Origin: an uncultured Acidobacteriaceae bacterium
Lineage (GTDB): Bacteria > Acidobacteriota > Terriglobia > Terriglobales > Acidobacteriaceae
Length of the DNA stretch: 64,000 nt
Direction of reading: 5' to 3'
Assembly (NCBI GenBank): GCA_963791085.1
Contig: CAWBQG010000003.1
Location: forward strand, 119,447 to 183,446
Positions 7,662 to 38,821 of the stretch are shown one piece after another (the first letter of the stretch is position 1; each line of letters begins with the position of its first letter). A program made the translations under genes and the position numbers. Under the pieces are notes generated by a model. That model was not told the origin of the DNA. It was given only the letters and a program-made list of their open reading frames with translations, and ran no database searches.

Positions 7662-7735
7662 ACCGGGCCTGCGGGGTCGCCTCAAACCATGTGACCGGAA
7701 TCACACTCGCCGGTGATAGAGGGTACGGGCGTACT

Positions 7736-21989: not shown

Positions 21990-23762
21990 CTATGCCACTG
22001 TGGCAACTTCCGCTTCCTCGTATAAGTCATCGATCTGCTTTCGATAACGTTCTTCGACGATCTTGCGGCGAAGTTTCAACGTTGGCGTAAGACTGCCGTC
22101 GTCTGTGCTGAATTCATCCGCCACCACCAGCACCTTTTTCAATGTTTCGTAACGGGCAAGCTTCTGGTTTACTTCCTGAACAATGCCGTCATAGAGAGTC
22201 TGAACTTTCGGGTTGCCAACCAATTCCCGCCGCGACGAGAAAGAGATATGGTTGGCGCGCGCCCAATCCTCAAGCAGACTAAAGCACGGAGAAATAATTA
22301 CCGACGCGAATTTCCTCCGGTCCCCCACCACCACTGCGGTTCCGATCAGAGCGTTCAGCTTGAGGGAATTCTCAACCGGTTGGGGCGCGATAAACTTCCC
22401 GCCCGAGGTCTTGAGCAAGTCTTTCTTACGATCGGTGACCGATAGAAATCCATCCTCATCCAGCATCCCGATATCCCCGGTTTTGAACCAGCCATCCACA
22501 AACGCGCTCCTGGTTTCCTCCGGGCGGTTCCAGTACGCTCGAAAGACCGAGGGACCGCGCACCAGAATTTCATGGTCTTCCGCGATCTGCACTTCGACAT
22601 TCGAGAGAAGCCGGCCCACTGTGCCCAGTTTGTGGGCGCGCGGCGTGTTCACGGCAATTACAGGCGAAGTTTCTGTCAGGCCGTATCCTTCGTGAATGCG
22701 GATCCCAATGCTCGCATACCACGCGGCCAGTTCACTGCCCAGAGGCGCTCCGCCCGAAACAAATACTTCAACGTTGCCGCCCATTCGCGCTCGCACCTGC
22801 GAATAGACCAACTTATTCGCCAGTTTCCAACTTAGAGACGTCGGCACCTCGCCTGCCAGGACCCTGTGTGCATGCGCACGGCCCACCGCGAGCGCCCAAC
22901 GGTAGATCGCTCGTTTGGGGAATTTCTTGGCCTTCTGTTCAACCTGGCCGTAAATTTTTTCGTAAACGCGCGGCACGCCCACGAAAAGCGTAGGCATCAC
23001 CTCCATAAGAGTCTGTGGCAGGTGTTCGAAGAAGGGGCAGTAGGCCAGAGTTACGCCGTGGTAGAGCAGCGCGAAATCGGCATGACGCGCGGTTACGTGC
23101 GACAGCGGCAAAAACGAAACACTGATCTGCCCAGGGTGAACATTGAAGCCCTCAAGCGAGCACAGAATGTTCGAGGTCAAATTTCCGTGCGTGAGCTGCA
23201 CCCCTTTAGAGATGCCCGTTGTTCCCGAGGTGTAAATGATGGATGCCAGGTCGTCTGCGGCGACGGCGCGCGCGCACGCATCCAGATCGGGGTCGAATTC
23301 AGCTGAACCTTCCTCCATTAACCGGCGCATGGGCGCCGCATCGGCAGTGTCCAGTGCATCCATCACCACTACCCGTTCCACCGCCGTCTGGTCCTTGATG
23401 GAAAGGACTTTCTTCAATTGTGCCTCGGTGGAAACGACCACAACCTTCGCCCCGGAATCGCACAAAATGTAGGCTGTCTGCTGAGCGGTCAAGGTGGCAT
23501 AGATGGGAACAACCGCAACGCCCAGTTGAAAAGATGCGAAGTCCGCTACGGCCCACTCCGGCCGATTCTCACTCAGGATCGCGAGCCGGTCTCCTTTCGT
23601 CAGCCCCCACTTGCGGAGCCCTCGCGCCACGCCCGCCACATGCCGATAGAACTGGCGCGAACTGACGGGAGTCCATCGGCCCGACTCACGAGTCAGCATC
23701 ACCCGCTCGTGCCTGCGGTCCACAATCGCCGAAAAGATGTCGTTAAGGGTTCGAGGCGTCAT
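21990..23762 (-). CDS. long-chain fatty acid-CoA ligase (AMP-dependent synthetase)
   Basis: 590 aa with AMP-binding motifs: IIYTSGTTGISKGV, GYGLTETS, TGDIG, GKFIAPQ. Confidence 0.9.
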   Translation of the reverse strand: MTPRTLNDIFSAIVDRRHERVMLTRESGRWTPVSSRQFYRHVAGVARGLRKWGLTKGDRLAILSENRPEWAVADFASFQLGVAVVPIYATLTAQQTAYILCDSGAKVVVVSTEAQLKKVLSIKDQTAVERVVVMDALDTADAAPMRRLMEEGSAEFDPDLDACARAVAADDLASIIYTSGTTGISKGVQLTHGNLTSNILCSLEGFNVHPGQISVSFLPLSHVTARHADFALLYHGVTLAYCPFFEHLPQTLMEVMPTLFVGVPRVYEKIYGQVEQKAKKFPKRAIYRWALAVGRAHAHRVLAGEVPTSLSWKLANKLVYSQVRARMGGNVEVFVSGGAPLGSELAAWYASIGIRIHEGYGLTETSPVIAVNTPRAHKLGTVGRLLSNVEVQIAEDHEILVRGPSVFRAYWNRPEETRSAFVDGWFKTGDIGMLDEDGFLSVTDRKKDLLKTSGGKFIAPQPVENSLKLNALIGTAVVVGDRRKFASVIISPCFSLLEDWARANHISFSSRRELVGNPKVQTLYDGIVQEVNQKLARYETLKKVLVVADEFSTDDGSLTPTLKLRRKIVEERYRKQIDDLYEEAEVATVA

Positions 23763-23852
23763 ATAGCAGACCTCCCTCGCTGTGAAACTCCCGACAAGTC
23801 GCTTTTCATGAGCGCACCTCAGCGACTTATGGCTCTATCAGTGCCCAATAGG

Positions 23853-24548
23853 CTACTTCAAATGCCCCCAGCGGAACGTCGGTCCCGTGGAGAATCGCCA
23901 ATAGTTCTGCCGGGATGCCAGAATGTTAGAAAACAAATGCGTATTCACATAGTCAGTGGCAAACCGCCATCCTAGTGGCCGCGTTATGTTGATATCGAAC
24001 CCGCCGCCCAAGCCAACGAATAGCTGGGTGTCAGTCTGGTGGGAGCTGGGAACAGGGATATTAAGTACGTCGAACAGAGTGCCCAACCCCAACGGGAAAG
24101 TGATGTTTGCCACCTCGTGAATTCCGCCCAGGCCGGGACGCGCAAAAAACGTAACTCTATCCCACTTCCGAAAATAAAACTGCGGGCCGGCGGCGAAAGT
24201 ATATGTCGTTGATCGGAACGGCACGTTAATCGAGCTTGCGCCACCAGGTACCAATCCCGACTGGTTAATCGCACCTGCATAGACCGTTTCGCTTCCATTG
24301 ATGGTCCCGGCGCCACTGATCACAGAGTCGCCGATAGCGCTGAAATCCCCGCCCAGGCCAAGCCATGGTTTCACCGTGACGCCGAAATCACCTTCGAACC
24401 CACGTTCCGTCAAGTTTCTGGCCGGGCTGATCAGGTAATCGAATCCCGTAAAAAGCGTATAGCGGTTAATATCAGTCCGCTGGGCCAAAGCAGGCAGACA
24501 CAAAATAATTGCGAGGCTGCAAAACACCGCACACGGTATTGCTTTCAT
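23853..24548 (-). CDS. outer-membrane beta-barrel protein (small porin/OmpW-size)
   Basis: 231 aa with a signal peptide (MKAIPCAVFCSLAIILCLPALAQ) and an alternating beta-strand pattern rich in G/F/Y. Confidence 0.7.
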   Translation of the reverse strand: MKAIPCAVFCSLAIILCLPALAQRTDINRYTLFTGFDYLISPARNLTERGFEGDFGVTVKPWLGLGGDFSAIGDSVISGAGTINGSETVYAGAINQSGLVPGGASSINVPFRSTTYTFAAGPQFYFRKWDRVTFFARPGLGGIHEVANITFPLGLGTLFDVLNIPVPSSHQTDTQLFVGLGGGFDINITRPLGWRFATDYVNTHLFSNILASRQNYWRFSTGPTFRWGHLK

Positions 24549-24580
24549 GCTCCACCTCAGGAGATTTATCTATTAAATGA

Positions 24581-26167
24581 CTAAGCAACGACTAAGTCTG
24601 CTGCCGGATCGTTTATCTTACTTGTTGACACTGGTTCCGCGACTCGTTGTGCGCGCCGTACTGGCCGACTGGGCGCTGTTCCAACTGCCGCAAATGCGGT
24701 TTGTGCCGCTGCGTCCGGCGCTGCCTTCCGCCTTCGGGCTGTGCGCTTCTTTTCCGGCGGCTTGATCCCGGCGGCATCGCGCAGTTCACCGAAGCTCTCT
24801 TCAAGCAATATCTCCAGCTTCCGCAAATCCGGCGCTGCCTGCGCATCTCCGCTGAAACCGAAGTACGCCATTCCGTTGTAACTCAAAATGGCGCAATTGA
24901 CGGCCATCTCGCCTCCGACCGGAACATACGGATAGCAATGCAGCATTTTGTGTCCGAACAGATAAAGCGGCCACTGCGGACCGGGCACATTCGTGCAGAC
25001 CAGATTGAAAGGTGTGATCGGCAACCGGCTCGCCAGTGGCCCCATCAATCCCTGCACCGAGGTCGGAAACATGCCGATCAATCCTCCGGCCAAACTTACT
25101 AACTCGGCGGCATGCACTCGCTTGAGAAATTCGGTTCGCTTGTGTGCCGCAGCAAGCAAGTGTAGCGGCCGGCGGATATCCAGCGGAATGGTAACTGGAA
25201 CCAGCGAGATCCGATTGCCGAGTTCCGACGGGCTGCTTTTCCCCCGCAGGCTGACTGGGACCATGATGCGCAGCAATCTCCCCTTCACGCTATCGCCATG
25301 TAACTCGCAGTAGCGCCGAATCGTCGCCGTGACGATCGCGAGAATGACGTCGTTTACGCTGGTCTTACATTTGTGCCGGATGGCTTTGATCTCCTCGAGC
25401 GGAATCTGAGTGAAACAGAACTTCTGCGGTCCCTGGTAAAGAACGTTGAACCGTAGCCGCTCCGTAAACGCCGTGAGTTCAGGGAACAGGCCGGCAAACT
25501 CGCGAGTGTCCAGGTCGCTGCCGTTGGCCGCCGCGCGCTCCGCCATGCTTAGCAGATCGCCCAGCGCCGAGAGAATTCGTTTGAGAAAGTCCGAATATGT
25601 CTCCACAAACCCCGTTGTAAGTGACGTCAGTGGGTCGCGAGGCGGCGGAACACGGAATTTAAGCTTTTTTCTGGGAAGACGCGGCGCTTCCGGGTTCGCA
25701 TCCAGAAGTACGTTCATGATACCCACGCCGGCGATTCCATCGGCCAGGCAGTGGTGCAACCGGAAGATAAGTGCGCTCCGACCGCCTTTTAATCCCCTCA
25801 CAAGCGTGATATCCCATAACGGGTGTTGTCGATCCATTACCGTGCCGAAAAGTTTTCCGGCCAGCGTTTTCAGTTCCGTGTCGGTGCCGTGTTTGAGTCT
25901 TACTTCACGCACATGGCGGTCGAGTGCAAAATTTGGATCGTACTCCCAGGTGGGGAGACCCAGGCCGAAAGGCGCGGGCACCACACGTTTCAGATAACGC
26001 GGCAGGAGCGGCAGCTTCGACTCGATAAACTGAACGCAGTCTGCAAATGAAACTTCACCTTCGAACACGCAGATGCTCGCCACATTGAGCGGCATGCCTT
26101 CCCGCTCCAGATGCAGGAAGACCGTGTCCCCCCAGGAAAGGCGGTCGCTCTGTTGATCGTTCTGCAT
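24581..26167 (-). CDS. wax ester synthase/diacylglycerol acyltransferase (WS/DGAT) family protein
   Basis: 528 aa with the catalytic HHxxxDG motif (RLHHCLADGIAG) and a downstream NVPGP motif. The Lys/Arg/Ala-rich C-terminal tail of about 65 aa is unusual. Confidence 0.9.
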   Translation of the reverse strand: MQNDQQSDRLSWGDTVFLHLEREGMPLNVASICVFEGEVSFADCVQFIESKLPLLPRYLKRVVPAPFGLGLPTWEYDPNFALDRHVREVRLKHGTDTELKTLAGKLFGTVMDRQHPLWDITLVRGLKGGRSALIFRLHHCLADGIAGVGIMNVLLDANPEAPRLPRKKLKFRVPPPRDPLTSLTTGFVETYSDFLKRILSALGDLLSMAERAAANGSDLDTREFAGLFPELTAFTERLRFNVLYQGPQKFCFTQIPLEEIKAIRHKCKTSVNDVILAIVTATIRRYCELHGDSVKGRLLRIMVPVSLRGKSSPSELGNRISLVPVTIPLDIRRPLHLLAAAHKRTEFLKRVHAAELVSLAGGLIGMFPTSVQGLMGPLASRLPITPFNLVCTNVPGPQWPLYLFGHKMLHCYPYVPVGGEMAVNCAILSYNGMAYFGFSGDAQAAPDLRKLEILLEESFGELRDAAGIKPPEKKRTARRRKAAPDAAAQTAFAAVGTAPSRPVRRAQRVAEPVSTSKINDPAADLVVA

Positions 26168-26209
26168 GGCGTCTCTCCTAATCAGGGCGCCGCGCGGCCA
26201 AAGCGCACT

Positions 26210-26491
26210 TCAGTTCTCGAAAGAAAAGCGCCGCGTCAATTTCATCAGCTTGAGCACTTTATAAACCTCAACGTTCACGGCGCGTAAGACGACCCTGACC
26301 CCTACCGCGTCAGCCCTTCGGATAAACTCTTCCATCGCGCGGAGCGTGCTCGAATCCACCCGGCGCACGGCAGAGAAATCCACAATCAAGTCCCCGGTCG
26401 CGGCGTCGAGCTTTTCTCCGGCCTCTCGCAAAACCGCGGCCACGCGCTTTTCATCGATCTTTAACGACATCGCAATCATCGACATATGCAC
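26210..26491 (-). CDS. STAS domain protein (anti-sigma-antagonist/MlaB-like fold)
   Basis: 93 aa (DFSAVRRVDSSTLRAMEEFIRRADAVGVRVVLRAVNVEVYKVLKLMKL). It starts 8 nt after the adhE stop. Confidence 0.7.
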   Translation of the reverse strand: MHMSMIAMSLKIDEKRVAAVLREAGEKLDAATGDLIVDFSAVRRVDSSTLRAMEEFIRRADAVGVRVVLRAVNVEVYKVLKLMKLTRRFSFEN

Positions 26492-26499
26492 CGCCGCGG

Positions 26500-29166
26500 T
26501 TACACGGTTTGTTGTTCGGGTATGTCAGCAGGTTTGGCAACGCCTCGGCCCTCATACGCTTTCCAAAGCAGTTCGGCCAGTTCGCTCATTAGGGGCATGC
26601 GCGGATTCGAGCGCCACGACGGATCTTCAAAAGTGGCCTTCACGAGGTCGGGAATCGCCCGCTCGAATTCTTCCTTCGAAATGCCCATCTCGGCGATTGA
26701 TCGTGGAAAGTTCAAGTCATCGAGCAATTGTTCCGTTGCCTCGATCAGTTTCTTGACTTTTTCTTCCACCGTATGACCGCCTAGTCCGAGTAAGTCTGCG
26801 ACCGTAGCGTACTTTTTATGCGCCACATAACCCTGCGTATAAGGCGACGGCATGAACTTGGCAGGAACTGCGGCGTTATAGGCAATTACATGCGGCAACA
26901 TGAGCGCATTGGCCCGGCCGTGCGCGACGTTAAAACGCGCCCCAAAAGCATGCGCTAGCGCGTGATTGACTCCCACTGACGCGTTTGAGAATGCCATTGC
27001 CGCGATGCAGGCGGCGTTGTGCATCATCGAGCGGGCCTCTTCATCGCGTGGATGCTCATAGGCGATCGGCAGGTACTTAAATGCCAGCCGAATCGCCTGC
27101 ATGGCGTTGGCATCGGTATAAGGCGATGCATAATTCGACACGCCAGCTTCCAGCGCGTGAGTCAGGCAATCGATGCCGGTGTCGGCCGTCAGGCCTTTCG
27201 GCATCGACATGACAAACTGCGGATCAACAATCGCCACGTCCGGAGTTAGCGAGTAATCGGCAAGTGTCACCTTGCGCCCACTCGACTTATCGGTCAGTAC
27301 CGCAAATGGAGTAACTTCGCTGCCGGTTCCGCTGGTTGTAGCAATCGCAATCATCCGTGCCCGGCTTGCTTTTTCGGTCGGAAACTGAACCACTCGTTTG
27401 CGGAGATCGAGAAAAGGCGCCGCCAACCCTTGCAGGTCAGCCTCGGGCGATTCATACTTAAGCTTCATGATCTTCGCCGCGTCGATAACCGACCCGCCGC
27501 CGAGCGCAATGATCTGGTCCGCTTTGTAGAAGTTGAGTGTCTCCACTCCCTGCGAGATGACCTTGATCTCAGGCTCCGCATCCGGAATGACTAGCACGTG
27601 AACGTGAGTGTCCGCGCCAATGTTTCGCCGGACGATATCTACGTGGCCGATTTGCTCGAGGCCCGGACTGGTGACGATGATGGTCGAGCGGGAGGGAAAC
27701 TGCCGCACGTTTTCCACCGCGTTCATGTTGAAGTAGATCTGATTCGGAATTCGGAACCACATATGGTTTTGTGTCCTGCGGGCGACGCGCTTGATGTTCA
27801 GATAGTGATAAACGTTGACGTTGTCGGTTGTGCTGTTACCGCCTCCGGTCCCGCATCCGAAAGAGAACGTCGGCACGAGATCGTTGTAAACCGCGCCCAG
27901 CGCTCCAATTGAGCCCGGCGAATTCACAATGATTCGCCCTGCGTTGATCACTTCGCTGAACTTGCGGATCACCTCATCGTTGCGCGAGAAAACAACCGCG
28001 GTGTGCCCAAGCCCTCCGGCATGATTTACGTCCACGCACACCTGGAGTGCCTCGCTCACCGACTTCGCGCGATAGACCGCGAGCACCGGGAATAGCTTTT
28101 CGGCCGAAAGCGGATGCTCCCGACCCACGCCTCGAATCGGCGCAATCAGAAGTTTGGTATTTGGCTTCACCGCGAGACCAATGAAGCGCGCGATATCGGT
28201 AGCCTTCTGCCCAACGGCCATAGGCTGCATAAATCCGGTCTGCGGATCAATCACCGTGCGCTCCAGCAGCGCGGTTTCTTTCTCGTTGCAGATGTGCGCG
28301 CCCAGGTCGGCAAATGTTTTCAGGGCGGCATCATAAATCTCGTCGTCGATCACCACCGTCTGCTCGGAAGCGCAAATGGTCCCGTTATCGAATGTTTTCG
28401 AAATAATAATGTCGACCACGGCCGCATTCAGATCCGCGGATTTTTCCAGGTAAACTGGCGTGTTCCCCGGTCCCACACCCAACGCCGGCTTGCCCGAACT
28501 GTAAGCGGCTTTTACCGCGCCCGGCCCGCCCGTGGCGTCGATCATGGCCACGTCTTTGTGCCGCATCATGTAGACGTTGTCGGGGATCGTGGGCGATTCC
28601 AGGCAGCTAAAAACCCCCTCCGGCGCGCCTTGCTTCACTGCCGTCTCGTACATGATTCTCACGGCCTCGGCGCAACAGCGCCACGCTTTCGGGTGCGGGC
28701 TGAAGATAACCGCGTTCCGCGTCTTCATCGCCACGATGCACTTGAACAAGACCGTGGAAGTGGGGTTCGTAATCGGCGTAATTGAAAACAAGACGCCGAT
28801 CGGGTCCGCTATCTCCACTAAATTCCGCTCGGGAAACTCGCGAATCACACCGACTGTGCGCTTGTCCTTGACATAGTTATAGACAAACTCGCTGGCCACC
28901 ATGTTCTTGATGACCTTGTCTTCCATCACGCCAAGCCTGGTTTCCTCAACCGCCAGCCGCGCCAGATGCTGAGCCTGCTCAAGTCCCGCCAGCACCATCG
29001 ATTTGACGATGCGATCCACGTCCTCCTGTGTAAATTGGGTAAAAACAGCGGCGGCGGTTTTTGCCTGACTAACCAGGTTCTCCAGGTAAGCAGTTCGTTC
29101 CGGACTGAGGCTGTCCGCGGCGGATGGACCGTGCGCTTGCTCCTTCACCGCTTCACTCGCGATCAT
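26500..29166 (-). CDS. adhE: bifunctional acetaldehyde-CoA/alcohol dehydrogenase AdhE
   Basis: 888 aa. N-terminal aldehyde dehydrogenase half (TNPTSTVLFK, FDNGTICASEQ) and C-terminal Fe-ADH half (GGGSVIDAAK, GVNHALAHAFG). Confidence 0.95.
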   Translation of the reverse strand: MIASEAVKEQAHGPSAADSLSPERTAYLENLVSQAKTAAAVFTQFTQEDVDRIVKSMVLAGLEQAQHLARLAVEETRLGVMEDKVIKNMVASEFVYNYVKDKRTVGVIREFPERNLVEIADPIGVLFSITPITNPTSTVLFKCIVAMKTRNAVIFSPHPKAWRCCAEAVRIMYETAVKQGAPEGVFSCLESPTIPDNVYMMRHKDVAMIDATGGPGAVKAAYSSGKPALGVGPGNTPVYLEKSADLNAAVVDIIISKTFDNGTICASEQTVVIDDEIYDAALKTFADLGAHICNEKETALLERTVIDPQTGFMQPMAVGQKATDIARFIGLAVKPNTKLLIAPIRGVGREHPLSAEKLFPVLAVYRAKSVSEALQVCVDVNHAGGLGHTAVVFSRNDEVIRKFSEVINAGRIIVNSPGSIGALGAVYNDLVPTFSFGCGTGGGNSTTDNVNVYHYLNIKRVARRTQNHMWFRIPNQIYFNMNAVENVRQFPSRSTIIVTSPGLEQIGHVDIVRRNIGADTHVHVLVIPDAEPEIKVISQGVETLNFYKADQIIALGGGSVIDAAKIMKLKYESPEADLQGLAAPFLDLRKRVVQFPTEKASRARMIAIATTSGTGSEVTPFAVLTDKSSGRKVTLADYSLTPDVAIVDPQFVMSMPKGLTADTGIDCLTHALEAGVSNYASPYTDANAMQAIRLAFKYLPIAYEHPRDEEARSMMHNAACIAAMAFSNASVGVNHALAHAFGARFNVAHGRANALMLPHVIAYNAAVPAKFMPSPYTQGYVAHKKYATVADLLGLGGHTVEEKVKKLIEATEQLLDDLNFPRSIAEMGISKEEFERAIPDLVKATFEDPSWRSNPRMPLMSELAELLWKAYEGRGVAKPADIPEQQTV

Positions 29167-29447
29167 TACTGCCTCCCTTCCGAACTGCGGGGAACCTCGC
29201 CGGCGTGAGCGCGTCTACTTGGAAATCAAATGTCCGAAGTAAAATGCCGGCGTCGAATCTTCGTCTATGACGGCGGCACTAATCTCTTGATCGCCTCAAA
29301 GCGCAAAATTACAAGGGATTAGCGACAGCGTGTGAGGAAAGTTCGGCGATGCAGATTCCGGGGCTCCGGCGGGCACCATACGTCAGCCTCGCTACCAAAG
29401 TAGAGCCCCTTCGGTGGAGTTGGTCTACAACGTGTGTCACACCTGAA

Positions 29448-29463
29448 TGTGACTATTATCACG
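29448..29463. promoter_or_regulatory. CRP/FNR-family-like site TGTGA-N6-TCACG in the adhE upstream region
   Basis: 'tgtgactattatcacg' matches TGTGA-N6-TCACA at 9/10 positions, about 290 nt upstream of the adhE ATG. Confidence 0.25.
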
Positions 29464-29542
29464 GGCTAACCGCAGATAGGCCGTGACCTACTAAGTCGCC
29501 GCTGGCTGAACTAAGGGCCGCTTGGTTTTCGAGGGGCAGGAG

Positions 29543-30352: not shown

Positions 30353-30913
30353 CTACTGCCCAAGCAGGCCTTTTTTCAGAGCCGCAGTGGGCGGCTTTGG
30401 CCCAAGCCACACGGAGAAGAGCGCTTGGCCGAAGCTCGGGCCGTCGATCACCAGCCTCTCCTTGCCATTGATGGCGAACGTCGTGCCCATGCCGGGGACG
30501 CAGGTGAAGATCATCTGATCGCCCTCCTTGAGCGGTTCAAGGGCGCCCAGCATCCGGTCGATGTCCGCCTTCATCGTCCTCTCAGCGTCCGGCGCGTTGT
30601 CGCGAAACGATTCGTCGAACGCCTCCGCCATCTGGTTCTTGCTTACGCTGCGCATGAACTGCAGGACGATCCGCTTGGGTTCATCGGCCTTGAGGATTGC
30701 GCCGGGATCCGCGGACTTCTGCGTCAGGTAGAGTCCTGCAACGTAAACCTTAACCATGTATTTCGTGCGCAATCCCATGCCATTGAGCACCAGCGACGTT
30801 CTCCCCACCTGTACCGTATCCGGCATGGACACGCCCGCCAGTTCGGCAGCGTATAGATTGCAGATCGACGCCAGCGCGAACGCGACCGCCAACGAAATAA
30901 CCGTGCTTCGCAT
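30353..30913 (-). CDS. secreted chalcone isomerase-like family protein
   Basis: 186 aa with a signal peptide and a pattern typical of bacterial CHI-like proteins (LVLNGMGLRTKYMVKVYVAGLYL ... FSVWLG). Confidence 0.8.
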   Translation of the reverse strand: MRSTVISLAVAFALASICNLYAAELAGVSMPDTVQVGRTSLVLNGMGLRTKYMVKVYVAGLYLTQKSADPGAILKADEPKRIVLQFMRSVSKNQMAEAFDESFRDNAPDAERTMKADIDRMLGALEPLKEGDQMIFTCVPGMGTTFAINGKERLVIDGPSFGQALFSVWLGPKPPTAALKKGLLGQ

Positions 30914-31081
30914 GTGTATCCCTCAGTAAACGGGCCTGCGAGACGAGATCGTACCACAGGCAAACCTGCCGTCCGAGCCACCTCTTAGTCCGAGGCTGGC
31001 TCCATGAATACCTGAACGAACTCGACTCTTGTTGATAAAATGAGCGGCGAGCGGCGAGTCGGAAACCCAAAAGGGAGGCGG

Positions 31082-32344
31082 ATGGAGAACGCGATCGGTC
31101 TCGTGATGACCGGCGGAGGCGCCAGGGGTGCCTATCAAGCCGGAGTTCTGAAGCGCATCGGTGAGCTGAAAGCGATCGAGGCCCACGGCAATCCTTTTCC
31201 TTTGATCGGAGGCGCGTCCGCCGGCGCAGTGAATGGCAGTGCGCTCGCCGCCGGTTGCGACGATTTCTCCTCCGCAACCCGTCTTCTCGCCGAAATGTGG
31301 GCGGGGCTCCAACCCTCCGATGTCTTCCGCTGCGATTTCGTAACGCAGGCGCACAATTCCCTCACCTGGATTCTGGATCTTTCATTTGGCGGGATTACCG
31401 GCGGAGGCCATGCCCGATCCTTATTAGATGCCGCTCCACTGCGGCACTTCCTGGGGCGGCATCTCGATTGTGACCGCATTCAAGCCAACATCAAGTGCGG
31501 CAACCTCTATGCTCTGGCCATTTCGGCGACCAACTTCAACTCCGGAAAGAGCTATCTTTTCATTCAGGGCGCCAAAGGGCACCCCATGTGGCAGCGTAGC
31601 CGGAGGGTGACGGTAGCGGCCAAAATTACGGTTGACCACATTTGCGCGTCCGCCGCCATTCCACTGATCTTCGAGCCGGTGCAACTCAAGATCCCAAGGG
31701 GATCAGCTTTCTTCGGTGACGGTTGCGCTCGCCTTCAACAACCTCTCAGCCCGGTCATCCGCCTGGGAGCGAAGAAGGTTTTCGCCATCGGCGTCCGCTG
31801 TGACAGCCAGCAACCCCTGGAAGTAAGCGCAGTTGAGAAAAGTCCCTCGCTCGCGCAGGTGATGGGAGTTCTCTTCAACGTGATCTTCCTCGACCATCTC
31901 GCCACCGATCTGGAGCACTTGGAGCGGCTGAATCATCTGCTCGAACATGGCCAGATCGTGAAGCACGACGTGGAAGAGTGCGAAACAATCCGCCCCTTGC
32001 GGACGTTTGTCATCACCCCATCCGTCATCTTGTCGGATGTGGCAGAGCGCCATCAAAAAGACATGCCCTCTCTGGTTCGGTACTTTGTCAACAGCTTGGG
32101 ACGGGATTCGGATTCCTGTGCGGACTTGATGAGTTACTTGCTCTTCACTTCAAAGTACACCCGCGAGTTGATTGACGTCGGCTATCGCGACGCCGACGAG
32201 CGAATCGATGAAATCGAAGACTTCCTATATTCCTCGGACGGTGGGGAAAGCCGGAAGATCGCCGCCAATGCGGCGAAAGGTGGGATCAAGCCACCTGCGG
32301 ACCTGAACGCCGATGGACCGGGTAACGTAAACCGGTTCTTGTGA
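31082..32344 (+). CDS. patatin-like phospholipase family protein
   Basis: The ATG at 31082 follows GGAGGCGG. Motifs: oxyanion GGGARGAYQAGV, nucleophile GASAGA, and FFGDGC (catalytic Asp region). Confidence 0.85.
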   Translation: MENAIGLVMTGGGARGAYQAGVLKRIGELKAIEAHGNPFPLIGGASAGAVNGSALAAGCDDFSSATRLLAEMWAGLQPSDVFRCDFVTQAHNSLTWILDLSFGGITGGGHARSLLDAAPLRHFLGRHLDCDRIQANIKCGNLYALAISATNFNSGKSYLFIQGAKGHPMWQRSRRVTVAAKITVDHICASAAIPLIFEPVQLKIPRGSAFFGDGCARLQQPLSPVIRLGAKKVFAIGVRCDSQQPLEVSAVEKSPSLAQVMGVLFNVIFLDHLATDLEHLERLNHLLEHGQIVKHDVEECETIRPLRTFVITPSVILSDVAERHQKDMPSLVRYFVNSLGRDSDSCADLMSYLLFTSKYTRELIDVGYRDADERIDEIEDFLYSSDGGESRKIAANAAKGGIKPPADLNADGPGNVNRFL

Positions 32345-32586
32345 GCGAGCAGCCTTCCGGCATGCGGAAATCGCGCCGCCGGATAGTTGAAGCTGGAAAT
32401 AAAATCGCGTCCTCGGACGAATGACTTGATTCGTTCGAAAAAGTGCCTCGAATCGAACGACCATTCGCCCGAAGACGCCTCGCCGGAGTCAACGATCTTT
32501 CTCCAGACGATAATGGGCTGGCGTTTTCGGCAACACGCATCGCCACAGACCGAAAAAGCTCGCCCTGCCTCGTTATTGCCGTCGCA

Positions 32587-33513
32587 TCAGGCGGTCGCCG
32601 CGACCGGAGGCTTTCTGGTGGCCCGCACTGGACGCTTGGCGCTCCGCTCCGTCTTGCCCGTTCGCGCGTGTCCATTCACAGGCCTTACGACGGCATCCAT
32701 CACTGCCCGCTGCGCGTCCACGTAGCTCTTCACAGTCTCCCGCGCCAACTCGCCCAGTGGGACGAACGGGAACGGCTGCAGAAGGTCCAGGGTCTTGCCT
32801 GCAGTTTTCACATAGGCGTTCATTTGCTGCCCTGCAACGTCGGCCAGCTTCTTTTGGGCCTCGATGAACGAGTCTGTCGCCTGTCGCGCAATCTCCGCCA
32901 GTTCGGTCTTCTTCATCTTCTTCGCACCGTTGGCGCTCTTCCCGCGGGTTGCGTTGGAGGTCTCTTCGGCGATCACGTCCAGAAAACGCTTCTGCGCCTT
33001 GACGAAGGTCTCCATGCTTTCGCGGGCCAGATCCACCACGTGCTCCGGCTGGTATGGCTTGCGGGCTTTGGCGGCCTCCACCCAGACATGATTCTGCTTG
33101 CCGGCGATCTTCAGGAACCCCTCTTGCATCTCAATGAAGGTGTCCACGCTGCGCCGCAGCAGATCAATGGCGGCATGGCGCCGCGGGCACTCGCCGATAC
33201 GTTCCTTGACCCCGGTCATCAGAATTTCGTTCTGCTCCTTGCCGAGATCGAGAAGCACCTTCTGTCCTTCGAGAAAGTTTTCCATGCCCTCGCCCGCCAT
33301 TTCGTTGAGGATGGTCGTGGGCGAACGATGGGGATCCGATAGTTGCTGCCGCAGGACGTCCATCACGCTGGCATTCTGCCGCATCGCCAGATCCAGCAGG
33401 ATCCGCTGCGTGCCGAAGAAAGCCTGTGCTCCCTGCTGCGCCCAACCGGAAAGAAGCGACAACACCGACGCTTCCTTTTGCGGAGTGGGTTCGTGCTTTG
33501 TTGCCGCTGCCAT
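32587..33513 (-). CDS. phasin-like repeat protein (paralog 1)
   Basis: 308 aa with six copies of an amphipathic motif, x-F-x3-Q-x3-L-D (e.g. ENFLEGQKVLLDLGKEQ, ETFVKAQKRFLDVIAEE, DSFIEAQKKLADVAGQQ), and a basic C-terminal tail. It is divergent from phaR and preceded by a strong promoter plus a palindromic operator. Confidence 0.7.
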   Translation of the reverse strand: MAAATKHEPTPQKEASVLSLLSGWAQQGAQAFFGTQRILLDLAMRQNASVMDVLRQQLSDPHRSPTTILNEMAGEGMENFLEGQKVLLDLGKEQNEILMTGVKERIGECPRRHAAIDLLRRSVDTFIEMQEGFLKIAGKQNHVWVEAAKARKPYQPEHVVDLARESMETFVKAQKRFLDVIAEETSNATRGKSANGAKKMKKTELAEIARQATDSFIEAQKKLADVAGQQMNAYVKTAGKTLDLLQPFPFVPLGELARETVKSYVDAQRAVMDAVVRPVNGHARTGKTERSAKRPVRATRKPPVAATA

Positions 33514-33528
33514 ATGAGTTCCTCCGAT

Positions 33529-33543
33529 TGCTGCGTTGCAGCA
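33529..33543. promoter_or_regulatory. PhaR-type palindromic operator TGCTGC-gtt-GCAGCA at the phasin-like gene 1 / phaR divergent region
   Basis: Perfect palindrome, 8 nt downstream of the -10 of the phasin-like promoter and just upstream of its RBS. Confidence 0.65.
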
Positions 33544-33551
33544 TCAGCTAA

Positions 33552-33580
33552 ACTATACGAGGTCAAGGGACTTGTGTCAA
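33552..33580 (-). promoter_or_regulatory. sigma70-like promoter of phasin-like gene 1 (TTGACA-N17-TATAGT)
   Basis: On the minus strand: 'ttgaca' (33575-33580), a 17-nt spacer, 'tatagt' (33552-33557). Confidence 0.55.
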
Positions 33581-33623
33581 GATATTCCGGGTCGCTTGTG
33601 CACAGCAACATAGGCGGGGAACC

Positions 33624-34157
33624 ATGAAGCCTTCCGCAGTCGTCATCAAGAAATACGGGAATCGCCGCTTGTACGACACCACTGGCAGCCGCTACGTCAA
33701 CCTCGACGACCTGGCCGCGCTCGTTCGAGCAGGTCAGGAGGTCCGCGTCGTCGATGCGAAAACCGGCCAGGACCTGACCCGCGTCACGCTGACGCAAATC
33801 ATTACCGAGGACGCTAAGGATAAGCCGACCGGCCTGCCGCTCGAACTGTTGCGTCAGTTGATCATCGCCTCCGATGAAGTGCGGCAGGAATTCCTCATGT
33901 GGTATCTGAAATCCGCGTTTGACACCTACGAGAAGGTGCATGATACGGTGCAGCACCGCTTGAGTGAAGTTCAGTCCGCCATCCTCTCTCCGGTAGACAT
34001 GATGAAGCGCTTCCTCGGTACAGCGGTGCCATCGTCTCCGCAAGCCGGCGTGGAGCCCGAAGTGGATGCCCTGCGCAAGCGGGTCGCGGAACTCGAGGCG
34101 CGACTGGAAAAGCCCGCGCGCGGCAAAGGCAAACGTAAATCCCGCAAGAAGCGTTGA
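33624..34157 (+). CDS. phaR: polyhydroxyalkanoate synthesis repressor PhaR
   Basis: 177 aa with a PhaR N-terminal DNA-binding signature (IKKYGNRRLYDT..S.YV.L.DL) and a basic tail (GKGKRKSRKKR). Confidence 0.9.
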   Translation: MKPSAVVIKKYGNRRLYDTTGSRYVNLDDLAALVRAGQEVRVVDAKTGQDLTRVTLTQIITEDAKDKPTGLPLELLRQLIIASDEVRQEFLMWYLKSAFDTYEKVHDTVQHRLSEVQSAILSPVDMMKRFLGTAVPSSPQAGVEPEVDALRKRVAELEARLEKPARGKGKRKSRKKR

Positions 34158-34315
34158 GCGCGCATCTGTCACGAGACCGCTCAACCTGACACGAGTGCCG
34201 GGGATGTCAACTTCGATATCTGTTTGGCCGGCAGAAGAGAGCGGTATAATCCCGCAGCACGCCAATCGCCCTCTCCGCGCGGCAACGCGAGGACAGAGGC
34301 CAGCGCAGGACGAAC

Positions 34316-35128
34316 TTGCAGCGCAAACAGAAAAGGACAACAAAACGTCATTCAACGATCGGACAGCGCAGGCGTCCTCGTCGGCAACTCCGCCCGGAAG
34401 CGAACACCTCCCTCTGGACCGAGGCGCTGCTCGGAGCTGAAATCCTCATCCTTCACGCCGCTCCTGTGTTCTACGGCCTGGGCGTGCCGCACGGCGATGG
34501 CTCCGCGGTTGTCATCATTCCCGGGTTTCTCGGCACCGATCTCTACCTGACGGAGCTGCATGCATGGCTGCGCCGCATTGGATACCAGCCGTATTTTTCC
34601 GGGATCGGCATGAATGCAGAATGTCCGAACCTGCTCATCCAGCGCCGTCTGAATCAGACCATCGACAGGGCGTTGGCCGAGACGGGGCGCAAGATTCATC
34701 TGATTGGCCATAGCCTGGGAGGAGTCATCGCCCGCTCGGTGGCGGGCGAGCGGCCGAACGATGTTGCTTCAGTAATTACCCTGGCTGCGCCCATCCGCGG
34801 CATGGTTGCGAATCGCGCTGTTCGCCGCGCCGCCGAAGCTGTTCGCCTCCGCATTCTTGAGGAGCACGGCCGAGGCGTGCTGCCCGATTGTTACACCGGC
34901 CAATGTACCTGCAATTTCCTGAATTCGCTCCGTCGCAAAGTCCCCGCCGCGATGGGCGAGACCGCCATTTTCACACGCAACGACGGCGTTGTGGACTGGC
35001 GCAACTGTCTGACGAGAGACCCTGAAAAAGACGTGGAAGTCCCCGGCACTCACATCGGAATGGCATTCAATCCAGCGGTATATGCGGTGGTCGCCGAGCG
35101 GCTGGCCCGGGCGCATTCGGCCGGGTAG
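34316..35128 (+). CDS. alpha/beta hydrolase (lipase/esterase-like)
   Basis: Nucleophile elbow GHSLGG, with an upstream PGFLGTD loop. The first available start is TTG 34316, giving a very basic N-terminus. The real start is uncertain. Confidence 0.75.
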   Translation: MQRKQKRTTKRHSTIGQRRRPRRQLRPEANTSLWTEALLGAEILILHAAPVFYGLGVPHGDGSAVVIIPGFLGTDLYLTELHAWLRRIGYQPYFSGIGMNAECPNLLIQRRLNQTIDRALAETGRKIHLIGHSLGGVIARSVAGERPNDVASVITLAAPIRGMVANRAVRRAAEAVRLRILEEHGRGVLPDCYTGQCTCNFLNSLRRKVPAAMGETAIFTRNDGVVDWRNCLTRDPEKDVEVPGTHIGMAFNPAVYAVVAERLARAHSAG

Positions 35129-35147
35129 CGTGATCGCTGCGGACTGC

Positions 35148-36089
35148 TCAGCCAACCATCTCCAGCACCGCGCCGGCGGTGGTTTCTAAACTTTCTGCCG
35201 GTGCGCCCGCAATCTCAATAACAAGCGACGCCGATGCCAGGCTGTTGTTCAGGACCTCGAACGCGCTCGTGCAATCAGTCTTTAAATAAGGAAGGCGATG
35301 CAGGCTCGGACCGCGTCCGTCAATCGAAGCTTCCAGGCGGAGCCCATTTCGTCCGCCGCAGCGAAAATTCCACTGCATGCCGGTGCGGATGTCGCCGTGT
35401 TCCCGCAAATCGCGGAGGACATGCTTCTCGCCACCGTGCCAGAGCACCGCTTTGCGGAATACCAGTCCAAATGGCATCTCGTAGACCAGGGCCTCAAACG
35501 TGGTTGCGGGCCGGCCGGCGCGAGGAAAATATGCGTGGGTCCAGGTCCAGAAGTTGCGATGCCGGTATCCGCAGTTGTGTCCCTGCAAGCCGAACCCGAG
35601 CGCGTCGCCCGCAAAGCTCCAGCCGTCCAGCGTGATCTCGCCGGAAAAAATCGCATCGGAGTGCGGCGTCCGCGAAAAGCCAATCCAGCCTTTGTTGCTC
35701 AACGTCACACGAAACGTGGAACGGTAACGCAGGTTCCAGCCGATCGTATGCCCGTCGACCACCAGCGCTCCCCGGCACGAGTCTTCTTCGATGCCGTTTT
35801 CGCCAACGTGAAACTGAAAGGGAGCCTGTCCTCTTCGGCTGAGGTCTAGCGACTGCAGCGGAAATCCCTGAATGAAGCTCTGCGGCTGCCCGCCCGCCGG
35901 AAACCATGTCGCCCACACCTGCACGGGCATTCCGCGCGGATTTCCGGCGCAGCCGCCGCGCCCGGGATTCATCAGCAAGTAACGAAACCACCAGGCGCCG
36001 CTGCCGTCGGCCAGTCCCATACGAAGAAACCAGACTTCATAGCGGCGCCGAACCGACAATGACGAAAATACTTCGTTTAGAGTGGCCAA
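35148..36089 (-). CDS. hypothetical protein, tentatively tocopherol-cyclase-like family
   Basis: 313 aa (TTG start). From memory, it resembles tocopherol cyclases: an N-terminal YEVWFLR...WWFRYLLMNP (cf. FFEGWY.R...F.YS.ENP), a central GHNCGYRHRNFWTWTHAYF (cf. EKNWG..FP..W.W.Q.N.F), and a C-terminal TAGAVLEMVG. The family call needs an HMM search. Confidence 0.5.
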   Translation of the reverse strand: MATLNEVFSSLSVRRRYEVWFLRMGLADGSGAWWFRYLLMNPGRGGCAGNPRGMPVQVWATWFPAGGQPQSFIQGFPLQSLDLSRRGQAPFQFHVGENGIEEDSCRGALVVDGHTIGWNLRYRSTFRVTLSNKGWIGFSRTPHSDAIFSGEITLDGWSFAGDALGFGLQGHNCGYRHRNFWTWTHAYFPRAGRPATTFEALVYEMPFGLVFRKAVLWHGGEKHVLRDLREHGDIRTGMQWNFRCGGRNGLRLEASIDGRGPSLHRLPYLKTDCTSAFEVLNNSLASASLVIEIAGAPAESLETTAGAVLEMVG

Positions 36090-36221
36090 GGATTTTCACG
36101 CTCCACGTAATGCAAGAAACGACATAGGAACTGTCTCACGGACGGATCGCACACGCCGTGATAGCTGTTACTGCGCTTCCGGGCCCCGGAGACTATAGTG
36201 TGAAGATCGAGACTCACCTCT

Positions 36222-37889
36222 ATGCTGGATGCGTCCGCCATCGCCGCGGGCTTTGGCCAGCTCGCCCCCGGCCAGTTGCGCGCCGCCCTCGAGAGCTTCT
36301 TGCCCCAGGGCGTCCCGGCCGCCGATAAAGTCAGCGTCATCGAAACCGGCCTGCGCAGCCCTGCCGGCCAGGCCATGCGCGACGTAATGGCGCGATGGAT
36401 CGTCGATGAAATCGTTCCGGTGGATACGCTCGTTCCCGAAGCTTATGTCAAGTGGCGTCCGCCTGTAAGGGACGCCATGATGTTTGTGGTGGCGCGACTT
36501 TCCCCGGCGCGCCTCGCCCCAAAACTTCTGGAGCAGATTGATCTTCCCGCCAACACGCTGGCCGAAGTGCGGCTGCTGCGCTTGATCGCGAAGGTGCCGG
36601 GCCTGCAAAAGCTGGGCCAGGTTATCGCGCGCAATCAGCATCTTCATCCGGCTCTGCGCAAGGCGCTTGCCCGGCTCGAAAACGGGATTCGCGACGTCCG
36701 GCCGGAACAGATTCATGCCATCATTCAGCGCGATCTGGGGAAGAGGATCGAAACGTACGCCATCGAGATCGCCCCTGCCATCCTCTCGGAGGCCAGCGTC
36801 AGCGCGGTTGTGCGCTTCAGCTGGCGAAATCCCGAGACCGGACGCCGCCAGCGTGGCGTCTTCAAAGTCCTGAAGCCTCACATCCCCGAGTATTTCGCCG
36901 AAGACATGGACTATCTGCAAGGGCTGGCCCAATATTTCGGAGATCGGCACCACCGCTATGGATTTCCTGCGCACCTCATTCCTGATACCTTCCGCAAAGT
37001 CCGGCGCTTGCTCCGGCACGAAGTCAATCTTGTCCGCGAACAGAAGACGCTGGTCGAAGCGGAAACTCTCTATCGGTCGATGCCCGGTGTTCGTGTGCCG
37101 CAGGTGATCGCCCCTTTGTGCGCGCCCACCATCACAGCGCTCACTGAGGAACGCGGGATCAAGGTAACGAGCGCGGCCGCCCGCTTGCCTGTCGCGCGCC
37201 GCCGAAAAGTGGCCGAGCAGCTCATCGAAGCTCTCGTCGCCGTGCCTTTGTTTGCGGCCACGCCCGATGCGATCTTCCACGGCGATCCTCATGCCGGCAA
37301 CCTGCTCTACAACAACCGCACCGGCGATTTGGTCATCCTCGACTGGGCCCTGCGGGAGCGACTGGGCCGCGAGCAGCGCCGGCATCTGGCGCTCCTGTTT
37401 CTGATGGTCAGCTTGCGCGATCCTCTCGGCGCCAGCGCCGCGATCGGCGCGCTCAGTCAGCAGCCCACAAGAATGCATTCGACTCGGGGAAAAATGCTGC
37501 GCCAGTCGGTAACGGAATTTCTGGGCGAGATGCCGCCCTCCCATTTGCCCAGTGCCGCCGACTCCATGCGCCTTCTCGAACGGGTCGCGATGAAAGGCGT
37601 CAGGTTTCCCGCCTCGCTCGTCATGCTGTCAAAGGTGATGTTCACGCTCGAAGGCATACTGGCCGACATCGTTGGGTCGGACACGGGTATGGGCTTCGCC
37701 ATCGCGCGTCGCGTCGCCCGCCGCTGGCTTGCCAATCGCTCCGCGTTCCGCTCGCCGCTCCGAACACGGGACTGGCTGACGCTGCAGTGCAGCGCGTTGC
37801 TCTACACCAGCCGCCTGTGGATCGATTGGGAGCAAGCGATGCTGAGGCGTTTTCTGACACACCGTTCCAAAGCGTTGCCAGCTGCCTGA
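36222..37889 (+). CDS. ABC1/UbiB (AarF) atypical kinase family protein
   Basis: 555 aa with ABC1 motifs: VFKVLKP, FHGDPHAGNLLY, ILDWA. Confidence 0.9.
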   Translation: MLDASAIAAGFGQLAPGQLRAALESFLPQGVPAADKVSVIETGLRSPAGQAMRDVMARWIVDEIVPVDTLVPEAYVKWRPPVRDAMMFVVARLSPARLAPKLLEQIDLPANTLAEVRLLRLIAKVPGLQKLGQVIARNQHLHPALRKALARLENGIRDVRPEQIHAIIQRDLGKRIETYAIEIAPAILSEASVSAVVRFSWRNPETGRRQRGVFKVLKPHIPEYFAEDMDYLQGLAQYFGDRHHRYGFPAHLIPDTFRKVRRLLRHEVNLVREQKTLVEAETLYRSMPGVRVPQVIAPLCAPTITALTEERGIKVTSAAARLPVARRRKVAEQLIEALVAVPLFAATPDAIFHGDPHAGNLLYNNRTGDLVILDWALRERLGREQRRHLALLFLMVSLRDPLGASAAIGALSQQPTRMHSTRGKMLRQSVTEFLGEMPPSHLPSAADSMRLLERVAMKGVRFPASLVMLSKVMFTLEGILADIVGSDTGMGFAIARRVARRWLANRSAFRSPLRTRDWLTLQCSALLYTSRLWIDWEQAMLRRFLTHRSKALPAA

Positions 37890-38039: not shown

Positions 38040-38792
38040 TTACGCCGGCACAACCTTGGGCCGGCGAACTGCGCGCCGCTGGCTGTGTTTGGCCTTGGCC
38101 ACGACCTTCCTGCCCGGCTTGACAAGCTCCCCGATCCGGGACGCCTCCTTCTCGACAAAGTTCTTCACGCTTTCGCTGGTGAGGTTCGCCATCGGCAGCA
38201 AGCGGGAAGGCGACATCATTTCGGCCGTTCGAGTGGCCACGTCCAGGTTGACGTTCATCTGCTGGCCCACGACGTCGAGCAGCCTTTTCTGCGCCTCGAC
38301 AAAGGCGTTTCCTGCTTCGCGAGCCAGTTGCGTCAGTTCGGTTTTTTTCGCAGTCTTGCCGTCGTGCTCGTGCTTGCCCCGCGTCGCTTTCGCGGTTTCC
38401 TGCGCCACCACGTCGAGGAACTTTTTTTGCGCGCGCGTAAAGGTCTCGACCCCCTCGCGGGCAAACTCCACCAACTGGGCCGAGCGCGATCCCTTGGCTC
38501 CCTTTTCCGGCTCCAGCATCCGGAGCGCCTGTTTGCTGGTGGTGGTCAGCAGCTCTTGCTGCATCCCGATGAGTGTATCGAGGCCCCGCCGTACAAGATC
38601 GGTCGCTGCAACCGCCGGCAGAAAGCCGCCGACTCGTTCTTTTACACCGTTGAAGATGATGTCGTTCTCTTGTTGTGCCAGGTTAAGAAGAGTGCGCTGC
38701 GTTTCCACAAGGCTCGATGTTCCCTCGACGGCCAGCTCAGTCAACAACGACAGAGGCGAGTGCCCATTGTGGAGATTGGTATGGGTCGGCAT
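38040..38792 (-). CDS. phasin-like repeat protein (paralog 2)
   Basis: ATG at 38792 (MPTHTNLH). It is collinear with 32587..33513 (ETFTRAQKKFLDVVAQETAKATRGK...KKTEL...AFVEAQKRLLDVVGQQMN) and has a basic tail. It has the same promoter/operator architecture. Confidence 0.7.
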   Translation of the reverse strand: MPTHTNLHNGHSPLSLLTELAVEGTSSLVETQRTLLNLAQQENDIIFNGVKERVGGFLPAVAATDLVRRGLDTLIGMQQELLTTTSKQALRMLEPEKGAKGSRSAQLVEFAREGVETFTRAQKKFLDVVAQETAKATRGKHEHDGKTAKKTELTQLAREAGNAFVEAQKRLLDVVGQQMNVNLDVATRTAEMMSPSRLLPMANLTSESVKNFVEKEASRIGELVKPGRKVVAKAKHSQRRAVRRPKVVPA

Positions 38793-38806
38793 AAGTGCCC
38801 TCCAAA

Positions 38807-38821
38807 TGCTGCAATGCAGCA
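38807..38821. promoter_or_regulatory. PhaR-type palindromic operator TGCTGC-aat-GCAGCA at phasin-like gene 2
   Basis: Perfect palindrome, again exactly 8 nt downstream of the -10 and just upstream of the RBS. Confidence 0.65.

Follow-up and report, generated by a model that had tools for sequence, protein, structure and literature searches.

Terriglobales/Sulfotelmatobacter-like Acidobacteria are among the most abundant bacteria of peat and acidic soils, and their carbon storage and anoxic physiology are largely obscure. In one of their genomes, the gene for AdhE, a bifunctional aldehyde/alcohol dehydrogenase, leads directly into genes for neutral-lipid synthesis; what has an enzyme of ethanol metabolism to do with a lipid acyltransferase? 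We analyzed this locus in a stretch of 64,000 nt (hereafter, the window) of contig CAWBQG010000003.1, which belongs to a metagenome-assembled genome (MAG) of Terriglobales (Acidobacteriota). Five co-directional genes of the minus strand encode AdhE, a small STAS protein, an O-acyltransferase from the family of wax ester synthases/diacylglycerol acyltransferases (WS/DGAT; its closest database copy is likewise from a MAG named Terriglobales), a putative outer-membrane barrel, and an acyl-CoA ligase. The first-pass annotation of the window had proposed that this AdhE replaces the fatty acyl-CoA reductase (FAR) missing from a wax ester pathway. The whole study is one of comparative genomics, and the related loci all come from MAGs, the taxonomic labels of a few of these being doubtful. 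We found adhE, STAS, and WS/DGAT to form a conserved unit behind a conserved predicted operator, and we tentatively regard the cassette as an overflow module, transcribed as a whole, that would form ethanol and neutral lipid in parallel.

Conserved gene order and operator

The five-gene array reported by the first-pass annotation was confirmed in the position, strand, and spacing (8–90 nt) of every gene (Table 1). As read from the sequence, the gap between adhE and STAS is 8 nt, or 14 nt if the STAS gene begins at the ATG of the public gene call (position 26485, giving 91 aa); the later gaps, in array order, are 42, 32, and 90 nt. A plausible ribosome-binding site precedes each downstream gene, and the terminator scan detected no terminator-like sites in any junction of the array. 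Operon-like coupling was thus borne out by short junctions without terminator-like sites and by adjacency kept in relatives, and from the sequence we infer co-transcription of the five genes.

The WS/DGAT alignment was used for a scan against one genome per GTDB species; there were 268 GTDB matches, and 80 loci were examined, all of them uncultured Acidobacteriaceae, Sulfotelmatobacter, or Terriglobia MAGs by record title. The genes for AdhE, STAS, and WS/DGAT were collinear in 78 of the 80 species genomes (tblastn with the window proteins), with identities to the window proteins of 80–91%, 38–66%, and 68–86%, respectively. The two exceptions, L053 and L077, have WS/DGAT and neither adhE nor STAS. 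An AdhE-led metagenome scan provided 80 further loci. STAS came next after adhE in every one of them with at least 240 nt of downstream sequence, and of the 65 loci with 700 nt or more, 58 had WS/DGAT next in line; at the other seven, adhE–STAS was followed by unrelated genes, without WS/DGAT. Across 158 related loci of both scans, AdhE was 80–91% identical. Over approximately 140 loci, the STAS start lies a median of 3 nt behind the adhE stop, and the WS/DGAT start a median of 36 nt behind the STAS stop; the gene order stayed the same while the identity of WS/DGAT fell to 65–68%. Conserved over some 150 independent related loci, the arrangement is far beyond chance, and the adjacency on which the first-pass annotation had made its proposal depend was found in both scans.

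The trio is flanked by at least five different upstream and three different downstream neighbours. Upstream of adhE, the relatives have a cholesterol-oxidase equivalog, a 129-aa membrane protein, a patatin, an acyl-CoA dehydrogenase, or others; downstream of WS/DGAT, they have the barrel and the ligase (about half), the ligase alone, or a set of FeS/CCG oxidoreductase, EtfB, EtfA, and acyl-CoA dehydrogenase. Since the flanks are less conserved than the trio, the latter has survived repeated rearrangement of its surroundings. The typical cassette was also present at L027, L047, and L081, in MAGs labelled Dormibacterota, Binatia, and Verrucomicrobiia, which probably reflects mis-binning or mis-labelling rather than transfer.

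A conserved non-coding promoter block with a predicted CRP/FNR-type operator, GTGATAATAGTCAC, lies upstream of adhE and is separated from its ATG by a leader of about 230 nt. The palindrome is of the TGTGA-N6-TCACA type characteristic of CRP/FNR-regulated promoters, and its position is conserved. Exact GTGA-N6-TCAC sites number two in the 64-kb window against 0.65 expected, and about 0.01 would be expected per 900 nt; of 69 genome loci, 65 have such a site in the 900 nt preceding adhE. It was also present at 5/5 stand-alone adhE–STAS loci with enough upstream sequence (out of the seven loci of this kind) and was kept in L053, where WS/DGAT alone remains. Another element of the block, TTGTAGACC..N..TCTACTTTGG, is a possible −35/−10 pair or a second inverted repeat. 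Rfam gave no match in the 1.3 kb upstream of adhE, and RNAalifold, applied to 39 leaders, found nothing conserved as an RNA fold apart from the DNA palindrome; a riboswitch or structured leader was dropped on these two null results, which indicate that the conserved block acts as a DNA element. A CRP-like ORF (open reading frame) upstream of adhE in L105 was rejected as the regulator: it encodes a membrane protein binding cyclic nucleotide monophosphate and occurs at that locus only.

The second GTGA-N6-TCAC site of the window, GTGACCGGAATCAC (7691–7704), is located 6 nt upstream of an ORF of 450 aa without a Pfam match (6333–7685, minus strand) and 60 nt upstream of an ORF of 96 aa (7764–8054, plus strand); these ORFs could belong to the same regulon as adhE. 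In many related loci, a predicted two-helix membrane protein of 129 aa and of no known family is encoded between the operator and adhE (or HMG-CoA reductase, or WS/DGAT); it is absent from the window.

AdhE, the lipid genes, and the STAS protein

AdhE of the cassette consists of the Aldedh (PF00171, residues 28–417), Fe-ADH, and ADH_Fe_C domains. Against the NCBIfam equivalog PRK13805/NF010378 it reaches 1147 bits, the cut-off being 951. It aligns end to end with AdhE of Escherichia coli (43% identity, 864 columns, 20 gap positions). The catalytic cysteine is kept (C265, equivalent to C246 of E. coli, in the motif FDNGTICASEQ), as are the four Fe ligands (D666, H670, H735, and H749, matching D653, H657, H723, and H737 of E. 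coli in the pairwise alignment). By its sequence, the enzyme is canonical and looks like an ordinary acetyl-CoA/ethanol AdhE, with no sign that would suggest a remodelled substrate tunnel. With the equivalog cut-off passed, the E. coli-like alignment, and the catalytic residues in place, the proposed function of fatty acyl reductase is unsupported. The accompanying statement that no FAR is visible in the window holds: no NAD_binding_4/FAR-type domain was detected with Pfam among the approximately 45 window ORFs scanned. Its absence matters only if the product is a wax ester, since a WS/DGAT making triacylglycerol has no need of fatty alcohol. Nor is the idea that AdhE serves WS/DGAT as an alcohol source supported by the seven loci where adhE–STAS, with its own operator, occurs without WS/DGAT. 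An acidobacterial adhE was reported to be up-regulated in anoxic peat incubations, in a MAG of subdivision 3, which makes this evidence indirect (PMC6018796); the supplementary files of that paper hold no gene-level data for AdhE or WS/DGAT.

WS/DGAT contains the PF03007 and PF06974 domains and reaches 340 bits on TIGR02946 (cut-off 310). Its HHCLADG motif, of the HHxxxDG type, is invariant in the aligned homologues. The protein is about 25% identical to the enzymes of Marinobacter and Acinetobacter with solved structures (6CHJ, 7NXG), and in this distant alignment, the equivalents of Marinobacter L356, A360, and M405 are M, S, and G. The barrel protein is borderline on PF13505 (28.9 bits versus a cut-off of 28.7) and has a signal-peptide-like N-terminus, MKAIPCAVFCSLAIILCLPALAQ. 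By tblastn, about 45 of the 80 genome loci have its gene near the cassette, and ORF clustering gives 37, with the ligase nearly always downstream. The acyl-CoA ligase matches PF00501 (2e-77) and PF23562, its best NCBIfam matches being below the cut-offs (FadD11 family NF038343, 363 versus 950 bits; PRK06187, 266 versus 476 bits), and its gene is downstream of WS/DGAT in 44/80 genome loci. In genomes without barrel and ligase, WS/DGAT is followed by genes for a 705-aa membrane FeS/CCG oxidoreductase similar to HdrD/GlpC (L041:11623-13740 and 21 other loci), EtfB, EtfA, and acyl-CoA dehydrogenase; this set looks like a route from electron-transfer flavoprotein (ETF) to quinone for beta-oxidation.

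The STAS protein matches PF01740 (E = 5e-11). Its AlphaFold model (pLDDT 81) is most similar in the PDB to anti-sigma-factor antagonists TM1081, RsbV, SpoIIAA, and RsbS (Foldseek; 3F43, 6M36, 1H4Y, 6JHK; TMq 0.67–0.75), and on TIGR00377 it scores 24.9 bits, below the cut-off of 53.45. The fold and size are those of the SpoIIAA/RsbV antagonists and of MlaB. However, where SpoIIAA and RsbV have a phosphorylatable serine, behind the conserved Asp, 154 orthologues of the cassette protein have S in 66, P in 38, A in 35, T in 10, and other residues in 5; we rejected a phospho-switch, as the serine is not conserved and proline or alanine stands in about half of the orthologues. Neither an anti-sigma kinase nor a PP2C phosphatase was found among the annotated frequent neighbour families, though a partner could be encoded elsewhere. 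An MlaB-like role of lipid adaptor, suggested earlier for this protein, also gained no support: the gene is in all adhE loci and absent from the adhE-less WS/DGAT loci, and no Mla-type genes occur in the window neighbourhood or in the annotated neighbour families of related loci. As L053 and L077 lack both adhE and STAS, the latter belongs to adhE rather than to the lipid genes. The family is small and clade-restricted, with 358 representatives among 1.84 billion in a profile search; the same search, used as a Rosetta-stone test, revealed no AdhE–STAS fusions, the best 150 of the 358 all being 61–161 aa long. The analysis identified, in short, a small STAS protein strictly linked to AdhE, which we infer to be an AdhE-specific accessory or regulatory protein without classical control by serine phosphorylation.

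HMG-CoA reductase in the place of adhE–STAS and the role of the array

In L077, a gene for HMG-CoA reductase (HMGR) replaces adhE–STAS between the gene of the 129-aa protein and WS/DGAT. A look at ten homologues of this reductase revealed six distinct contexts in which its gene immediately precedes WS/DGAT, in many cases overlapping the WS/DGAT start. The reductase matches PDB 6HR7 (E = 1e-89), and all the catalytic and HMG-binding residues checked against Arabidopsis HMGR1 (8ECG) are conserved, at positions that we take to be those of the human-enzyme numbering. On these residues, the L077-type enzyme is a genuine class I HMG-CoA reductase. No other mevalonate-pathway genes were seen in the HMGR-type stretches. 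The gene order of L163 is that of the AdhE-type loci L073 and L078, gene for gene, save for the reductase swap, and its WS/DGAT is 84.5% identical to the enzymes of these two loci and 53–74% identical to those of other HMGR-type loci. This closeness to the AdhE type, together with a neighbour-joining tree without support values and the raw identities, suggests that AdhE and HMGR were exchanged more than once. Each of the 193 positions conserved at 95% or more in AdhE-type WS/DGATs is retained in at least one of the four HMGR-type enzymes, and L163 shows no difference in the pocket-proximal motifs. Residues separating AdhE-paired from HMGR-paired WS/DGATs were sought, and none were found.

The array is modular: operator, adhE, and STAS stand alone at seven loci, and WS/DGAT occurs without adhE–STAS in L053 and L077. 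On this ground, we read it as one regulated transcription unit assembled from two separable modules. The first would comprise the operator, adhE, and the dedicated STAS gene, and would convert acetyl-CoA and 2 NADH to ethanol and CoA. The second, of WS/DGAT, outer-membrane barrel, and acyl-CoA ligase, would park activated fatty acids as neutral lipid, most simply as triacylglycerol. A single signal, presumably low oxygen or the energy/redox state, would switch on both sinks, which would take up acetyl-CoA, acyl-CoA, and reducing power and set CoA free; AdhE and WS/DGAT would not depend on a metabolite handed from one to the other. WS/DGAT shows no adjustment to a change of the reductase upstream, which favours such parallel sinks, and there is a precedent in Mycobacterium tuberculosis, where the WS/DGAT gene tgs1 is hypoxia-induced within the DosR regulon. 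The anoxic up-regulation reported for an acidobacterial adhE is a second, indirect one (PMC6018796). Also in favour are the canonical AdhE, the conserved trio with its short junctions and operator, and a neighbourhood of PhaR, phasin-like, lipase, ABC1, acyl-CoA dehydrogenase, and ETF genes, with cytochrome bd encoded in the window. A conserved operon that links ethanol formation to a neutral-lipid acyltransferase would offer a handle on what these bacteria do with carbon and reducing power under a rising water table.

Several points weigh against parallel sinks and keep our preference for them tentative. The operator was present in only one of six HMGR-type loci, so that one common signal cannot cover both types, and a regulator binding the palindrome was not found, there being no DNA-binding CRP/FNR gene among the ORFs scanned in the window. 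HMGR, another reductase of CoA thioesters to alcohols, has repeatedly filled the slot upstream of WS/DGAT, a fact that parallel sinks explain poorly; non-homologous displacement usually means a shared pathway role, and the formation of mevalonate would be a poor overflow sink. Finally, neutral-lipid storage in Acidobacteriota has been called unexplored (PMC10351704).

The presence of HMGR in the place of adhE fits the idea that conversion of a CoA thioester to an alcohol is what matters there, and the exchange in place poses the question of what both reductases have in common from the viewpoint of WS/DGAT. The slot might be reserved for a reductase of this kind, AdhE with STAS or class I HMGR, swapped in situ more than once and handing its alcohol to WS/DGAT; native fatty acid ethyl esters would then be formed, or mevalonate acyl esters in the HMGR-type relatives, in either case as neutral lipids for overflow or storage, and STAS would be a hitherto unknown accessory factor of AdhE. 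We regard this as a minority possibility.

The main rival to the parallel sinks, a natural pathway of fatty acid ethyl esters, has about the same modest chance. It assigns the slot to the alcohol supplier: ethanol from AdhE and acyl-CoA from the ligase would be joined by WS/DGAT into ethyl esters, which, being neutral and non-diffusible, may store carbon and reducing power or else serve to cap acyl-CoA. The gene content is that of the engineered design, an ethanol module with atfA and fadD (PMC3100327), and ethanol is accepted by WS/DGAT enzymes (PMC8787340). The tightness and conservation of the operon are in its favour, as is the repeated displacement of adhE–STAS in situ by HMGR, whose reaction is formally likewise a reduction of a thioester to an alcohol and whose translation is coupled to that of WS/DGAT. 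If true, it would give a natural counterpart to an engineered biofuel pathway. Yet ethanol and mevalonate are very unlike, and WS/DGAT remains unchanged with the reductase. The substitutions reported to confer selectivity for short alcohols (A360I, L356A/F/V, M405W/F) are absent from the M/S/G positions, a weak argument at an alignment identity of about 25%. Moreover, adhE–STAS also occurs without WS/DGAT, and ethanol is freely diffusible, so that its supply needs no adjacency.

That the genes merely lie side by side by inherited synteny, without functional meaning, is improbable. All the loci do come from one order-level clade, as judged by record titles, and the two modules can each stand alone; however, the trio remained intact while both flanks were reshuffled several times, its operon-like intergenic gaps extend over about 140 loci, and its order was kept at the lowest WS/DGAT identities.

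AdhE working in the oxidative direction is just as improbable. Ethanol from neighbouring fermenters would be converted to acetyl-CoA and 2 NADH, feeding fatty acid synthesis and storage via WS/DGAT. The AdhE reaction is reversible, ethanol is common as a fermentation intermediate in peat, and the storage-lipid neighbourhood would fit; but class I HMGR, the displacing enzyme, is of a biosynthetic reductive class, and the cassette contains no genes of ethanol uptake or dedicated respiration. In addition, the adhE up-regulation noted above was under anoxia, where the oxidation of ethanol would be without an electron sink (PMC6018796).

The reading of the first-pass annotation, in which AdhE replaces FAR and reduces long-chain acyl-CoA to fatty alcohol for wax esters made by WS/DGAT, is the least supported as a proposal and improbable: the chemistry is formally right, no FAR-type domain was found in the window ORFs scanned, and the same class of alcohol from AdhE and an HMGR-family enzyme would explain the unchanged WS/DGAT, but AdhE belongs by score to the acetaldehyde/ethanol equivalog with few gaps against E. 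coli AdhE and its catalytic and metal residues kept, HMGR retains its checked residues and so is no remodelled fatty acyl reductase, stand-alone adhE–STAS loci exist, and we know of no AdhE that uses C12–C18 acyl-CoA.

Known systems and the storage-lipid surroundings

The cassette AdhE has the same two-domain architecture, catalytic cysteine, and Fe ligands as the fermentative, spirosome-forming AdhE of E. coli and clostridia. A regulated promoter and a long untranslated leader are common to adhE of E. coli and adhE of the cassette; however, the former is monocistronic, whereas the latter always has a dedicated STAS gene behind it and, in most cases, WS/DGAT. Among known operons, the closest is mymA of M. 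tuberculosis, where genes for an alcohol dehydrogenase (adhD, zinc), a lipase, and a short-chain dehydrogenase accompany the combination of WS/DGAT-family protein and acyl-CoA synthetase common to both systems. This stress-induced operon (Rv3083–Rv3089) encodes FadD13, an acyl-CoA synthetase, along with two Tgs proteins of the WS/DGAT family (PMC4895118). It differs from the cassette in having a zinc alcohol dehydrogenase and no STAS gene instead of CoA-acylating AdhE with STAS, and it is under AraC-type VirS and acid control, with a proposed role in the cell envelope and not in storage or fermentation.

The engineered "microdiesel" pathway for making fatty acid ethyl esters in E. coli consists of pdc-adhB, atfA, and fadD (PMC3100327); it unites the same three functions as the cassette (ethanol formation, WS/DGAT, and acyl-CoA ligase) but is man-made, and the combination has so far been an engineered design only. 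The classical wax ester pathway of Acinetobacter and Marinobacter (FAR/Acr1 with WS/DGAT) has an HHxxxDG WS/DGAT in common with the cassette; the identity of these WS/DGATs is low, as given above, and the fatty acyl-CoA reductase there is of the short-chain dehydrogenase/reductase type, of which there was none in the scanned window ORFs. Our literature searches found no description of a natural adhE–WS/DGAT operon, of an AdhE-associated STAS protein, or of an HMGR–WS/DGAT pair; to judge from the literature searched, the adhE–STAS–WS/DGAT arrangement of uncultured soil and peat Acidobacteria was not described before.

According to Pfam and NCBIfam, the surroundings of the cassette are a region of carbon storage and lipid turnover. 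In the window, a conserved neighbourhood outside the transcription unit of the cassette occupies positions 31040–37889 (Table 1), and its families recur near the cassette in 41–59 of the 80 genome loci. Acyl-CoA dehydrogenases and ETF are encoded there in other genomes.

Table 1. Location of the cassette, its promoter elements, and associated genes. Positions refer to the window unless a related locus is named (locus:positions).
Feature	Position	Strand	Remarks
adhE, bifunctional CoA-acylating aldehyde dehydrogenase/Fe-alcohol dehydrogenase	26500-29166	-	888 aa
STAS, small single-domain protein	26210-26491	-	93 aa from GTG start
WS/DGAT-family O-acyltransferase	24581-26167	-	528 aa; basic, Pro-rich C-terminal tail
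Putative outer-membrane beta-barrel protein	23853-24548	-	231 aa; borderline PF13505; signal-peptide-like N-terminus
Long-chain-type acyl-CoA ligase, FadD11-like	21990-23762	-	590 aa; AMP-binding and AMP-binding_C_3
GTGATAATAGTCAC palindrome, GTGA-N6-TCAC, predicted CRP/FNR-type operator	29449-29462	.	296 nt upstream of adhE start codon
Conserved non-coding promoter block	29350-29470	-	Operator, third GTGAC, TTGTAGACC..N..TCTACTTTGG, CGAGGCTGA, GTGCCCGCCGGA; alignment of 37-40 upstream regions
HMG-CoA reductase upstream of orthologous WS/DGAT	L077:5325-6545; L163:5001-6224; L165:5001-6200		
HMG-CoA reductase upstream of orthologous WS/DGAT, further loci	L166:5001-6191; L167:5001-6227; L172:4001-5233		
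129-aa membrane protein in relatives	L037:6595-6984 and 20 other loci; also L053:9453-9839, L077:4825-5286, L163:4500-4886		
Patatin lipase	31040-32344	+	
Phasin-like repeat protein	32587-33513	-	308 aa
PhaR	33624-34157	+	
LCAT/PGAP1-like alpha/beta hydrolase	about 34292-35122	+	
146-aa protein of no known family	35151-35588	-	
ABC1/UbiB-type kinase	36222-37889	+	

The phasin-like protein, adjoining PhaR, is composed of xxF(V)EAQKRLLDV-type repeats, and its sole family match, to the E subunit of class III polyhydroxyalkanoate synthase, is weak. It is encoded near the cassette in 59/80 genomes, has a paralogue in the window at about 38106–38816 (minus strand), and is a candidate surface protein of granules or lipid droplets.

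Between patatin and adhE, the window encodes a chalcone-isomerase-like protein (PF16036) with a signal peptide (30353–30913, minus strand), which was found in none of the related loci; plant members of the chalcone-isomerase fold bind fatty acids. A GMC oxidoreductase family, absent from the window, is represented by L016:4977-6656, which passes the NCBIfam cholesterol oxidase equivalog (872 versus 850 bits); this family was found upstream of adhE in 43/80 genomes, and in 26 of these no other large upstream gene is nearer. A 4HBT-family thioesterase gene followed by the genes for cytochrome bd oxidase subunits I and II was found at 46493–49509 (plus strand), 18 kb from the cassette, with no GTGA-N6-TCAC site upstream of these genes; the presence of the high-affinity cytochrome bd oxidase fits a microoxic lifestyle.

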